63,622 bases of DNA, filler included, from Reclinomonas americana ATCC 50394 (GCA_048213135.1; 8 parts of 8 records of this genome joined end to end with filler, not necessarily neighbours in it), one strand, 5' to 3'. Counted from the first letter of the whole stretch, positions 88 through 63,622 are shown. Numbers and translations are program-made. The notes: a model not told the origin generated them from the sequence alone.

Positions 88-2771
88 GGTCAAGGTGGTG
101 GCCTGTACATTTCCCAGTCCGTCGGCACCGTGTCAGGCTGCGATTTCTCCGCCAACACCGCCTTTATGGGTGGCGCCGTGTACATTACCTGCGCGTCGAC
201 CGGCTCGTGTGTGCCGACGTCGCTTAACAACTTGGCAGTCAGTGACAGCATGCCGTCCAGTTGGAACGTGTTGGCGCTCAGTGGCTCGGTCGCTGCGTTC
301 AACCAGACGCACGTTGTTGACACGACTGCGTCTACGCAACCGGTGGTGCACGACACGTCGCTCGACGACATTGTTCCTGGCTTCTTTGCTCAAGGTCGTG
401 TGCGTCGCGGCGATGTGCGGTCTCGTGACATTGCGCTGCGAGATTCGACGCAGACAATTACGTTCACCGGCACGACGGTTTTCAATAGCAACTTTGCCAC
501 TGGCTCTGGTGGTGCTATCATGTGGACCAATGTGCAGCCGACTGTGGCCATGACTGTCGAGTTCACCAACAACGACGCCAACTATGGCGACGAAGTGGCC
601 TCTGGTGCGTTGAGATTGTTTTTCTTTGTAGTTTGTGTGATGTGTCCGCTTCAGTGCTCATCTCTTTTGCATTTTTCGTGCTTGTCTTTCCCCGCTTGTG
701 CAGTGGCCAAGGGCGTGCAGGTTGTTGGTAGTTTCTCGCCCGTCATCACATCGGGTCAAACTATCACGACGCCATTGGTGGTGGCGCTGGTTGATCAGAC
801 TGGCGATGTGGTGTCCACTGACAACAGCACGATTGTCGAAGTGCGCAGTACGGCGGCCGGTGTCGACGTCACAGGTCTCACGTCCAAGTCTGTGTCGATG
901 GGTCGAGCAACGTTTACGGTACGGCTCGCCCCATCTCTACTTCCTCGTCATCATCACCATTTGACAACTGACTTTCTTCTGCTTCCTCTGTAATCTAGGG
1001 CCTCGCGGTGTTGGCCACTCCGGGTTCCACAGTCGCGCTGCAAGTTTCATCGTCGGGCCTGCAGGCGGCCAGTGTGCAGCTGGTGGTACGCAACTGCACC
1101 GTGGGCGAGAATCTGACGAATGGCGGTCGCCAGTGCACTCCGTGCCCGACCGGCAGCTACACGCTTGTGGCCTATGGCCAGTGCACGCAGTGCACTGAAG
1201 ATGGTATCAACTGCGCGGCCGGTGGAGCAGCTGCTGTCAGCCAAGACGGCTACTGGCTCTACCGCAACGGCGACCTGTATCAGGTGTATCAGTGTCCCGA
1301 CACGTATTGTATGGCGAACAACACCTGTGGCGCCTACCGCGACATCAACTCACCACTGTGTGCTCGCTGCCTCGATGGCCGTCTCAACTGGGGCCTCAAA
1401 TGCGTCAGTTGCGGCCTCAGTTACCGTGTCAGATCCCGTCGGCCAGTGGATTAATTGTTTCTGTACAGATTGCCGTGGTACAAATTGGCTGGCCGTGTGG
1501 GGTCTCTTCTTCCTGGCGTGGTTCTACGTGGCGGCCTTGTTGTGGATTGGCCGTTCGTCATCTGGCAAATTCAAGATTCTCCTATACTTTGCCCAGACTG
1601 TGCAGGTTCCGTTTTCAGCGCACGTGACGCCAGTGTGTCCGTTGCTCACTACATGCTCCTTGCGTGCACATACAGCTTCTGCTCGGTCCGAACTCGAGTC
1701 TCCTTTCGTTGTTTGCTTTCTTCAACGTCGACTTCCAGCAAGTTAGCGGTGACGGATGCGTTGCACCGCTTTCGTTCTACGCCAAGTCTGGCTTCATTTT
1801 ATTGTTGCCAATCATCTTCGGCGTCTTCCTTTGTATGTCGTTTGGCGTCAACTGGGTGTGGTTGCGGTACGAGTTTGAGATCAAGAACTTTGCCTGGTTC
1901 TTATGGGCGGTGCGTTGTGCTTTTGATGCCCTGTTGTTGACTTCGTCGTTCGCTCACTTGTATCGCAGTTTATACGCACGTGTGAGCCTCGGCGACGCTG
2001 GAAGGACATGAAACTGAGAATTCGGCAGCAGCGCGACGATGCCGATCCCGACCGTCGTGTGCAAATGGACAACTACATTCATACGTTTGCTTTCCTGGTG
2101 CTCTTCGCGTACTCCAGTGTCACGCAAACTGTGCTGCAGTTTATCAACTGTCGTTCGGTACGATGCGCGGGCACAGTGATTGTTGTGTGTGTGTGTGTGT
2201 GTGTGTGTGCTGCTGCTGCTGACTCGGTTGGCCTTTTTTTGGTGCAGGTCGGCACGGCCAAGCTCGTGGCCTCGTCTCCCGACATTGATTGCTCATCGTC
2301 CGAGTACAAGACCTGGCTTCCGTTCTACTACATTCTGCTGGCCTGCTTCGTTGCTGCCGGGTTGCGTTTGTGTCTGCTGCTCCATGCCATGTGCCCAGCA
2401 AAGAGGGCGGCAGGTTACTCATTTGTTTCCCGCTGGCACAGACCGATTGGACTGCTCATATTCCTGTTGTGGGCTCGCTGGAAGAAGAAGCTCGGCAGTG
2501 AGAAGTTCCGCAAGCGCGCCGCCGTGCTCTACTCGTGCTACCGCAGTCGCGCGTTCTACTGGGAAGTGATTTTCGTCGCTCGGTTCGTTCCTTTGCCTGA
2601 CCATGCACCATTGTGTGGGTTTGTCTTTGTTGACTCACTCTCGATTCTGTCTGCAGGCGTACTATTCTAATTGCGCTTTACGTGGCGCTTTTCGACCAAG
2701 AATCGTCGCGGTCGTTTGCGCTCGCCTTTGCCTGCATTGTGATCTCGGCCTTGCACATTGCGTTCATGCCG
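88..2771 (+). CDS. Partial multi-exon membrane protein: GGA(I/V)/FxxN repeats, Ig-like region, Cys-rich region and multi-pass TM C-terminus
   Basis: Exons give 'FSANTAFMGGAVY', 'FNSNFATGSGGAI', 'CTPCPTGSY', 'QCPDTYC', 'CARCLDG', then hydrophobic helices ('FKILLYFAQT', 'YRSRAFYWEVIF'). GT-AG introns. The 5' end is off-window and the 3' end runs into a gap. Confidence 0.75.
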
Positions 2772-2871
2772 NNNNNNNNNNNNNNNNNNNNNNNNNNNNN
2801 NNNNNNNNNNNNNNNTTAATTAATTAANNNNNNNNNNNNNNNNNNNNNNNNNNNNNNNNNNNNNNNNNNNN
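2772..2871. other. Assembly spacer (44N-TTAATTAATTAA-44N)
   Basis: Identical six-frame-stop linkers also occur at 11621-11720, 14662-14761, 18709-18808, 30656-30755, 51017-51116 and 60762-60861. Confidence 0.98.
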
Positions 2872-2975
2872 GACAAGGAAGAAAAAGGAGACGACAAGTC
2901 ACCTAGTGTCGAGGTTGCGTGCTCGTGTATGTTTGAGAGGGCGAGACCGGGGCTGATGGTGCGTGTCTCGCGCAG

Positions 2976-62589: not shown

Positions 62590-62675
62590 CCCTCACGCCA
62601 CCTTACATCACAAATTTCTGTACCAACCTCCCCCCTCCCTCTGCAAAGAATGAAACGCGCTGTTGCATTGCAGTC

Positions 62676-63622
62676 TCAGTACATGTTGAATCGCCCCTCA
62701 AAGTATCTCGCCACACGCAGCAGCGGGTTCCGCCTGCCCAACGCCAAGCAGATCTTCACGAAAAAGCACGTCAGTCATCATCGCATCCAGCACACACATG
62801 CACCTATCACCACGCAACTCCAGTGAAGACCAGCATGAGGATGAACGCAAGGAAGCCGCCACGCAGTCCACGCACGTAGCCCACAAAGAAGATGAACGCC
62901 CACGCAATGATAAAGTACGCCTGCGAGGAGAGAGTGAGCGACTCACACTCTCTGTGTGTGTGCACGAGAGAGAGAGAGAGAGAGACGCAACAATAGAAAA
63001 ACGGACTGCTCAAGTCGCGCTCGTGCAGTGAGTTCTGCCACGAAGTGCTGCGAATCACGTCGCGTGCGTCGTTGCGGAAGACCACCTCGGATTCCAGTGG
63101 ATTGTCGCTGACCACATGCAGACTCTCTGCAGGCACAAACTGTTCACAAAGAGAGAGAGAATGAATGAGGGGGGAGAGAGAGGAGAGAGGACAGTGCACA
63201 CCGACAGACCTTCTTGCGATCGGCACGGTTGCGTGCGTTTGACATGTGTGAAGAAGAAGGGACAATCGTTTTTACTCACTCTCTCTGTCTGTCGGTCGTG
63301 TTCGCTTTTCTTGTTTTGCACCTCAATGTGCGCGCTGATCGATCGCCGACCGTTGGCATCGATGGCCGGGAAGCTCAGTGAAGTTAGTGCGATGCAGCCG
63401 CCATTGTGGCTGACGGTCGGTGGAGGCGCTGCCGTTGCATTGCTAATTGCGCCGTGGTCGCTGGCGGGTTGGGCAGTGCTGTTGGTGTCGCAGATGGTGC
63501 GGTACACGGTGTGGCGTTCGCTGGTGGTGCTGGTGGCACTGGCGGTGGCGATCTGGCGCAGCTTGTCGGCGTGTGCGTCGCGGCCACCTGCAGTTGCAAC
63601 TGATGGAGGATCCGGAGTGTGC
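62676..63622 (-). CDS. C-terminal part of a hypothetical protein with two terminal TM helices
   Basis: 'AYFIIAWAFIFFVGYVRGLRGGFLAFILMLVFTG|ICLALGRRNPLLRVARYFEGRFNMY*'. Confidence 0.55.

Follow-up and report, generated by a model that had tools for sequence, protein, structure and literature searches.

Two kinds of 5' splice site occur together in the eukaryotic DNA studied here, a stretch of 63,622 bases (the window) that is about 57% G+C and dense in genes and introns. Besides ordinary donors such as G/GTGCGT (a slash marks the cut), a shifted class with the heptamer GTTGCGT, in which the same motif lies one nucleotide further downstream, opens roughly one in four to one in three of the window's introns. 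Given AG/ acceptors, the predicted cut in these introns is in front of the GT. On balance, we favor a model in which the ordinary major spliceosome reads the GTTGCGT donors with U1, a small nuclear RNA (snRNA), and probably U6, displaced by one base. An original prediction for this DNA had listed 24 such donors and regarded them as a mainstream second class; in agreement with that view, 37 of our 155 predicted introns, and 37 of the 121 with a recognizable donor, belong to it.

All 24 listed donors carry GTT[G/T][C/A/T]G, and 19 of them are exactly GTTGCG followed by T, G, C or A. G occupies the last exon position (−1) at four, leaving 20 of 24 without it, as had been stated. The heptamer GTTGCGT occurs 46 times on the two strands, against 17.0 occurrences expected under a third-order Markov model, and chance was rejected as the source of the class. 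Counted in the same way, GTAGCGT was found twice, GTCGCGT and GTGGCGT 18 times each and GGTGCGT 29 times. The original prediction had also placed GTTGAGT, GTTGTGT and GTTTCGT in the shifted class. These variants are rare (2, 1 and 2 of our 37 shifted donors) and are not enriched in the window (11 observed against 9.0 expected, 12 against 27.3 and 5 against 6.1, respectively); it is the GTTGCG(T) part of the proposal that holds, with GTTGCGT accounting for 24 of the 37 donors and GTTGCGG and GTTGCGC for two each.

A test free of gene models asked what share of the sites of a motif is followed by a CTNAY..YAG signal ending 45-100 nucleotides (nt) downstream. The signal was drawn from introns of NOG1 fixed by homology, which carry CTSAC about 20 nt before YAG and are about 65-80 nt long. 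GTTGCGT had the 3' signal at 29 of 46 sites (63%), compared with 1189 of 8465 (14%) for all GT sites, 3 of 45 for the reverse complement ACGCAAC, 6 of 38 for GT[ACG]GCGT and 4 of 28 for TTGCGT without a preceding G. The classical donors GGTGCGT, GGTGAGT and GGTACGT had it at 14 of 29, 11 of 28 and 6 of 11 sites. Therefore, GTTGCGT marks intron starts at least as well as classical donors do.

We also parsed the window with a gene finder that combines a three-periodic Markov coding potential, introns restricted to GT or GC..AG, a prior on length and a term for branch point plus YAG. Frames with Pfam support served for its self-training; it proved too noisy without the branch-point and acceptor terms. 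Given nothing about donors beyond GT or GC (the donor-blind parse), it returned 170 introns, 101 of them with high confidence, and recovered 14 of the 24 listed sites. The most frequent donor hexamer among the 101 was GTTGCG, with 18 cases, compared with 7 for GTGCGT. An expectation-maximization mixture with a background component and random starts fitted best with two donor classes: the Bayesian information criterion was 4576.7, while one class gave 4617.8 and three gave 4674.7. Its consensus sequences were gcaGTTGCGTgt (weight 0.19) and caGGTGCGTttt (0.38), the background of 0.43 representing wrongly placed donors; this unsupervised procedure split the donors into caG/GTGCGT and gca/GTTGCGT.

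In a later parse the donor mixture was learnt on intron positions only, so that the exon positions are unbiased. Its 155 introns comprise 84 ordinary donors (G at +5), 37 shifted donors (T at +3 and G at +6, not G at +5) and 34 in neither class, many of which are probably errors. Twenty of the 24 listed sites are in this parse; the others are 39044, found in two other gene-finder parses, 42039, found by homology, and 41775 and 24572, for which the support is weaker and partly manual. Of 22 gene models, 13 contain shifted donors; among the 16 models having at least three introns, 12 do. From a single matrix with independent positions, built from the 155 donors, 0.82 GTTGCGT donors would be expected and 24 were seen; for GTTGCGT with a base other than G at −1, the figures are 0.32 and 17. 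GTTGCGT is thus commoner than a single-register matrix predicts, a comparison that the original prediction had named among those able to refute the class.

The two classes differ only at the 5' end of the intron, where about two thirds of introns resemble caG/GTGCGT, having G both at −1 and at +5. Of the 84 ordinary donors 71 have G at −1, compared with 9 of the 37 shifted ones (p = 2.4e-10); in the high-confidence subset the counts are 50 of 61 and 9 of 29. Among donors lacking this G, 28 of 61 are of the shifted type. A class in the canonical register without G at −1 is almost missing, since [ACT]GTGAGT was intron-like at 4 of 46 sites and [ACT]GTGCGT at 17 of 88. Within the intron, all 37 shifted donors carry G at +6, which follows from the definition; 33 have C at +5, 32 have T at +7 and 31 have G at +4. 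Ordinary donors have C as the commonest base at +4 (38 of 84, compared with C at +5 in the shifted class, p = 3e-6), use the triplets GCG (22), GAG (19), GTG (14) and ACG (11), and include no GTAAGT among the 84. A downstream preference for gt falls at +7/+8 in ordinary and +8/+9 in shifted donors, and could extend pairing with U6. Alignment on GCGT gives caG-G-TGCGT for the ordinary and (g)ca-G-T-TGCGT for the shifted consensus, the latter being the former with the cut one base upstream.

In the rest of the intron the classes are alike. Median lengths are 71 nt (shifted) and 72 nt (ordinary), G+C content is similar, and both classes have the branch A some 21 nt before the 3' end, CTCAC and CTGAC being the prevailing motifs; among shifted introns we counted CTCAC 16 times and CTGAC 9 times, at a median distance of 20.5 nt. 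Intron anatomy is very regular throughout the window, with a median of about 71 nt and CTCAC, CTGAC or CTAAC about 21 nt before CAG or TAG (for example 6314-6381, 7074-7139 and 8050-8116), and the branch-point and acceptor signal alone finds introns well.

The place of the cut was examined with a spliced protein-to-genome aligner that is blind to donors beyond GT or GC..AG. The original prediction had held several junctions to be fixed by protein conservation, and seven prove gap-free under /GT..AG/: three in the gene for a long-chain acyl-CoA synthetase (ACSL) and one each in NEK2, RAB5, ATG2 and NOG1. The ACSL introns with donors at 42039, 41278 and 40652 were picked by 19, 18 and 18 of 19 homologues, and removal of the first restores ...STGVPKGVV-L-THRN.... 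In the NEK2-like kinase, the exon before 58061 matches human NEK2 to residue 212 and the next exon matches from residue 214, with a split codon between them. RAB5 aligns with the Rab5A chain 4q9u_B to residue 23 in exon 1 and from residue 43 in exon 3, and the intervening 19 residues are the 17 that exon 2 encodes plus one from a split codon on either side (1+17+1). A search with an ATG2 exon against longer proteins gave no match, and this junction was therefore checked with Pfam: ATG2_CAD positions 1432-1474 lie in the exon before 44283 and positions 1475-1527 in the next. In NOG1, positions 1-22 of Pfam NOGCT precede 7811 and positions 25-54 follow the intron, a split codon and one residue filling 23-24. 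Retention of 31 of the 37 shifted introns would break the frame or bring in a stop. With AG/ acceptors, these gap-free, in-frame junctions thus place the predicted cut in front of GTT.

The ACSL intron at 41971-42039 (minus strand) is a 69-nt stretch that reads through in frame without a stop, and was missed by the gene finder, which relies on coding potential. Its retention would insert 23 residues into a conserved AMP-binding motif.

For the pairing with U1 we computed nearest-neighbor energies with the canonical U1 5' end (AUACUUACCUG; PMC4856993), which may not be the organism's own, leaving out its pseudouridines. GUUGCGU reaches −3.2 kcal/mol in the register shifted by +1, +0.6 kcal/mol with a bulge at +2 or +3, and +2.6 kcal/mol in the canonical register. 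Pairing of C9 of U1 with G+1 fits, because the preference for G at −1 is lost. The second register that had been proposed draws indirect support from the lost enrichment of G at −1, from the energies calculated with the canonical U1 end and from the cut at /GT that the frame needs with AG/ acceptors. Base pairing of the snRNAs in the shifted register most likely accounts for the class.

Our model suggests that a standard U2-type spliceosome would handle both kinds of intron. On a shifted donor, U1 would be displaced by one position, so that C9 pairs with G+1 of the intron instead of G−1 of the exon. A mismatch would follow at U+2, after which U+3 and GCGU would pair as positions +2 to +6 normally do. 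The ACA of U6 would probably also sit one base further downstream, and the cut would still be made in front of GU.

Several observations weigh against this model. With canonical U1 the shifted duplex is weak (−3.2 kcal/mol, compared with −9.7 for the ordinary consensus), and the same U1 pairs with GUUGAGU (−7.6) better than with GUUGCGU. A plain shift predicts GTTGAGT and GTTGTGT to be about as frequent as GTTGCGT; the class is narrower than that, the triplet GCG being present in 28 of its 37 donors but in 22 of the 84 ordinary ones (p = 6.6e-7). The corresponding shift of C on the exon side is marginal: at −2, C stands in 16 of 37 shifted and 21 of 84 ordinary donors (p = 0.055), and at −3 in 8 of 37 and 32 of 84 (p = 0.09). 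The loss of G at −1 could also stem from exon-side contacts being traded off against intron-side ones, with no part played by the U1 register. The intron set comes from a home-made gene finder applied to 63 kb, in which 34 of 155 donors fall in neither class, many of them probably wrong, and three of the shifted introns are paralogous within one gene. It might be a threshold effect that restricts the class to GCGT, but a second U1, a U1 carrying G-C at positions 5-6 or a protein factor could do so too.

The narrowness of the motif leaves room for a co-evolved or second U1; the original prediction had suggested a variant U1/U6 snRNA. Either the sole U1 would carry G-C for U-U at positions 5-6, or a separate variant complementary to GUUGCGU would serve this class; we regard an altered or second U1 as rather unlikely. 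For a U1 with G-C at these positions, caG/GUGCGU would be a perfect partner and ca/GUUGCGU a perfect one but for a single mismatch. Canonical U1 would favor GUUGAGU, yet GTTGAGT stays at chance level (11 against 9.0); GTAAGT is missing from the 84 ordinary donors, where C is commonest at +4; and both the excess of C (33 of 37 at +5 against 38 of 84 at +4, a hint only) and the excess of GCG triplets in the shifted class point the same way. Against such a U1, the ordinary donors are varied (GAG 19, GTG 14, ACG 11, GCG 22), unlike what tight matching to a GC-type U1 would give, and GC-rich genomes with canonical U1 also favor GTGCGT. To our knowledge, moreover, the U1 5' end is almost invariant across eukaryotes. 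A threshold could narrow the class as well, as one lost contact requires the consensus at all others. A lineage that routinely uses two registers side by side, with about 30% of its introns cut one base upstream of the place set by the U1/U6-complementary core and the rigid GUUGCGU read by a changed U1 (G-C at 5-6) or by a dedicated second one, is a picture that we consider doubtful; if true, it would represent a natural major spliceosome with two U1s or a re-tuned one. We judge it improbable that U1 (and U6) instead stay canonical at G+1 and U+2 and bulge one U, so that GCGU pairs as usual. Registers with a bulge at +2 or +3 are reported for human sites (PMC4856993), an anticorrelation of exon-side and intron-side strength is described (PMC11732430), and the intron side of the shifted class is very strong (G+6 by definition, T+7, G+4). 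The bulge, however, costs +0.6 kcal/mol in either position, compared with −3.2 for the shift, both calculated with the canonical U1 end, and the weaker helix should need G at −1 more, whereas this G is at background level (9 of 37), although exon and intron contacts trading off against each other could mask such a need.

The remaining explanations concern the cut and the donors themselves. A cut one base downstream, G/TTGCGT, would turn these into introns that lack GT, read in the ordinary register and having G at −1. On the GCGT alignment, G-T-TGCGT would then be the ordinary consensus G-G-TGCGT with G changed to T at +1, and TTGCGT is linked to introns only after G (4 of 28 otherwise), although this fits either place of the cut. 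With AG/ acceptors, however, all junctions checked are in frame and gap-free only for /GT, and GT stands at the proposed cut in all 37 shifted sites. If both ends moved by one base, the frame would be preserved, but the 3' ends would become AG plus any base, without a consensus; this conflicts with the requirement for AG at 3' ends. We consider a cut at G/TT extremely improbable. It is likewise very improbable that the class is an artefact of misplaced gene-finder donors, or that it reflects shared descent, GTTGCGT being the end of a mobile introner family. The home-made gene models, the donors in no class and the paralogous introns noted above would fit either origin. The model-free test, the homology-only alignments and the junction checks with Protein Data Bank and Pfam entries are nevertheless independent of the gene finder, and shifted donors are spread over 13 of 22 gene models. 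In an all-against-all blastn of the 155 introns, similarity was confined to four pairs within the WD40 gene and one low-complexity match of 15 nt. An introner family was rejected, no whole-intron sequence being shared outside the paralogous WD40-gene introns.

The listed introns and fourteen further ones are collected in Table 1, along with the spacers of the window.

Table 1. Introns with shifted donors and spacers in the window. The donor column gives the −1 base in lower case before the cut; "listed" marks sites of the original prediction.
Feature	Coordinates	Strand	Donor	Set	Support and remarks
Intron	1408..1468	+	a/GTTGCGG	listed	donor-blind and later parse
Intron	2361..2441	+	g/GTTGCGT	listed	gene finder, later parse; branch point and YAG end at 81 nt
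NOG1 intron	7811..7885	+	a/GTTTCGT	listed	16 of 24 homologues; donor-blind parse; Pfam NOGCT
NOG1 intron	8050..8116	+	a/GTTGCGT	listed	donor-blind and later parse
NOG1 intron	8382..8453	+	c/GTTGCGT	listed	gene finder, later parse
Intron	12314..12385	−	c/GTTGCGT	listed	donor-blind and later parse
Intron	12759..12832	−	t/GTTGCGT	further	gene finder; 3' signal at 74 nt
Intron	13041..13102	−	c/GTTGCGC	further	donor-blind and second gene-finder parse
Intron	13403..13456	−	t/GTTGCGT	further	donor-blind and later parse
GDPD gene intron	15782..15863	+	a/GTTGCGT	listed	donor-blind and later parse
Probable intron	20188..20332	+	t/GTTGAGT (rare variant)	listed	gene-finder parses only
Possible first intron	24572..24641	+	a/GTTGCGA	listed	11-nt ATG exon in frame with exon 24642-24778; manual reading only
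Intron	27785..27854	−	g/GTTGCGT	further	donor-blind and later parse
Intron	27950..28013	−	g/GTTGCGT	further	gene finder; 3' signal at 64 nt
Intron	28966..29039	−	t/GTTGCGT	further	donor-blind and later parse
Intron	32237..32298	+	a/GTTGCGA	further	donor-blind and second gene-finder parse
Intron	34648..34715	+	g/GTTGCGT	further	donor-blind and later parse
Intron	36355..36423	+	a/GTTGCGT	listed	gene finder, later parse
Intron	36520..36580	+	c/GTTGCGT	listed	donor-blind and later parse
Intron	36723..36796	+	g/GTTGCGT	further	donor-blind and later parse
Intron	37284..37354	+	t/GTTGCGT	further	later parse
Intron	38078..38138	+	c/GTTGCGT	further	gene finder; 3' signal at 61 nt
Intron	39044..39122	+	a/GTTGCGC	listed	donor-blind and second gene-finder parse
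ACSL intron	40583..40652	−	c/GTTGCGG	listed	18 of 19 homologues; donor-blind parse
ACSL intron	41213..41278	−	c/GTTGCGT	listed	18 of 19 homologues; donor-blind parse
Probable ACSL intron before micro-exons	41712..41775	−	a/GTTGTGT	listed	5-6 of 19 homologues (low intron penalty); manual reading
ACSL intron within PKGVVL/THRN	41971..42039	−	t/GTTGCGT	listed	19 of 19 homologues
ATG2 intron	44212..44283	−	a/GTTGCGT	listed	donor-blind parse; Pfam ATG2_CAD
ATG2 intron	45109..45174	−	t/GTTGCGT	further	donor-blind and later parse
ATG2 intron	46643..46715	−	c/GTTGAGT	further	donor-blind and later parse
ATG2 intron	46938..47008	−	a/GTTTCGT	further	donor-blind and later parse
Intron, 268 nt	51676..51943	+	c/GTTGCGT	listed	donor-blind and later parse
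WD40 unit 1 intron	53494..53560	+	g/GTTGCGT	listed	donor-blind and later parse; paralogous to 54982 and 56459
WD40 unit 2 intron	54982..55058	+	g/GTTGCGT	listed	gene finder, later parse; tandem GTTGCGG at 54976, picked by donor-blind parse
WD40 unit 3 intron	56459..56526	+	g/GTTGCGT	listed	donor-blind and later parse
NEK2-like kinase intron	57989..58061	−	c/GTTGCGT	listed	gene finder, later parse; human NEK2 alignment
RAB5 intron	59950..60021	+	t/GTTGCGT	listed	gene finder, later parse; residue count against 4q9u_B
Intron	62754..62818	−	a/GTTGCGT	listed	donor-blind and later parse
Spacer	2772-2871				
Spacer	11621-11720				
Spacer	14662-14761				
Spacer	18709-18808				
Spacer	30656-30755				
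Spacer	51017-51116				
Spacer	60762-60861				

The seven spacers are identical and 100 nt long, each consisting of N44, TTAATTAATTAA and N44, with stops in all six frames. Apparently they join contigs, eight of which thus make up the window, and genes flanking a spacer are not necessarily neighbors. Pfam searches of long open frames identified NOG1, a GDPD protein, HAUS2, WD40 proteins, ACSL, ATG2, a NEK-type kinase, a Rab and Rcd1/CNOT9. No near-identical homologue of the window's proteins was found in the protein collection searched, and the named best matches of NOG1 are scattered, including Pyramimonas, Rhodelphis, Corallochytrium and Capsaspora. Rfam found no snRNA gene in the window: no family was reported at gathering thresholds, and no snRNA at a permissive E ≤ 1. 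Two weak matches resembling C/D-box small nucleolar RNAs, at 45646-45696 (minus strand, E = 0.059) and 31844-31915 (minus strand, E = 0.63), are far under gathering scores and probably due to chance.

(GT)n and (CT)n microsatellites are very frequent, with 248 occurrences of GTGTGTG and 185 of CTCTCTC on the two strands. They often start directly at a donor (G/GTGTGTGT...), and some donor positions are therefore ambiguous in steps of 2 nt. The WD40-repeat gene at 51620-57000 (plus strand) contains three tandem units of about 1.5 kb each, with intron places common to all units; shifted donors open the introns at 53494, 54982 and 56459 and ordinary donors those at 53720, 55224 and 56692, and intron sequences are still alike across units. 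In ACSL, 41589-41711 (minus strand) apparently holds two micro-exons of 31 and 26 nt, missed by both the aligner and the gene finder, which restore a homologue-like ..GGCIGYYSG... A scan of metagenomes with the NEK exon covered the best 80 of 579 confirmed matches, all of them distant (at most 69% identity), and the 20 best loci lacked an intron there. Six of the metagenome loci (L010, L014 and L017-L020), unrelated to the window, have in-frame TAA or TAG in the conserved kinase region, as where these codons stand for amino acids.

U1 binding and the exact choice of the cut are known to be separable, but sites read out of register are rare exceptions among the organisms examined to date. If the quarter to a third seen here applied genome-wide, it would offer hundreds or thousands of natural test cases for how U5, U6 and Prp8 fix the cut after U1 leaves, and a definite expectation for the organism's U1 5' end that can be checked. 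There would also be a warning for annotation, as a gene finder trained with a single donor matrix scores GTTGCGT as almost impossible and would mis-model a large share of the genes in this lineage. The literature searched, outside of which lie two key papers and the host lineage, contained no description of an abundant class of GTTGCGT-type donors, and we do not claim that the class is undescribed.

U12-type introns are a familiar minority second class, with the donor RTATCCTT and a branch site resembling TCCTTRAY close to the 3' end. Like the shifted class, they have a rigid 5' motif and no exon-side consensus. The motif here differs from RTATCCTT, and branch motif, branch distance and length are ordinary; with donors of GTTGCGT and these features as in ordinary introns, a U12 type was rejected. 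Within a single register, PMC11732430 describes a split between AG//GUNNN and NN//GURAG sites with anticorrelated exon-side and intron-side features. One class there leans on the exon (G at −1) and the other on the intron, as in the window, but those two share one register, whereas here G moves from +5 (ordinary) to +6 (shifted) and the motif is displaced by one base. Registers of U1 with a bulge at +2 or +3 or with an asymmetric loop (Roca et al. 2012; Tan et al. 2016, PMC4856993) also concern sites that look like the consensus with an extra nucleotide between +2 and +5. A bulge keeps G at −1 paired to C9; in the shifted class this G is at background, and with a canonical U1 the shift is energetically better.

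The shifted register is an established mode for rare human 5' splice sites (Roca & Krainer 2009, as cited in PMC4856993 and PMC11162779). On our model, the human sites resemble the class described here in that the cut falls at a GU while the remaining positions match the U1 5' end one position downstream, in not needing the −1 base, as C9 is taken by G+1, and in using the major spliceosome. The human register has suppressor-U1 proof, whereas the register in the window is predicted from sequence. All non-canonical registers together are estimated at about 1.5% of human sites (PMC11162779), compared with 24% of predicted and 31% of recognizable donors here, and, unlike the human sites, the class has its own rigid heptamer, GTTGCGT, which the strength of pairing with canonical U1 does not explain. 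The human shifted register is the nearest known system, from which the class in the window differs in its abundance (24-31%) and in having its own motif.

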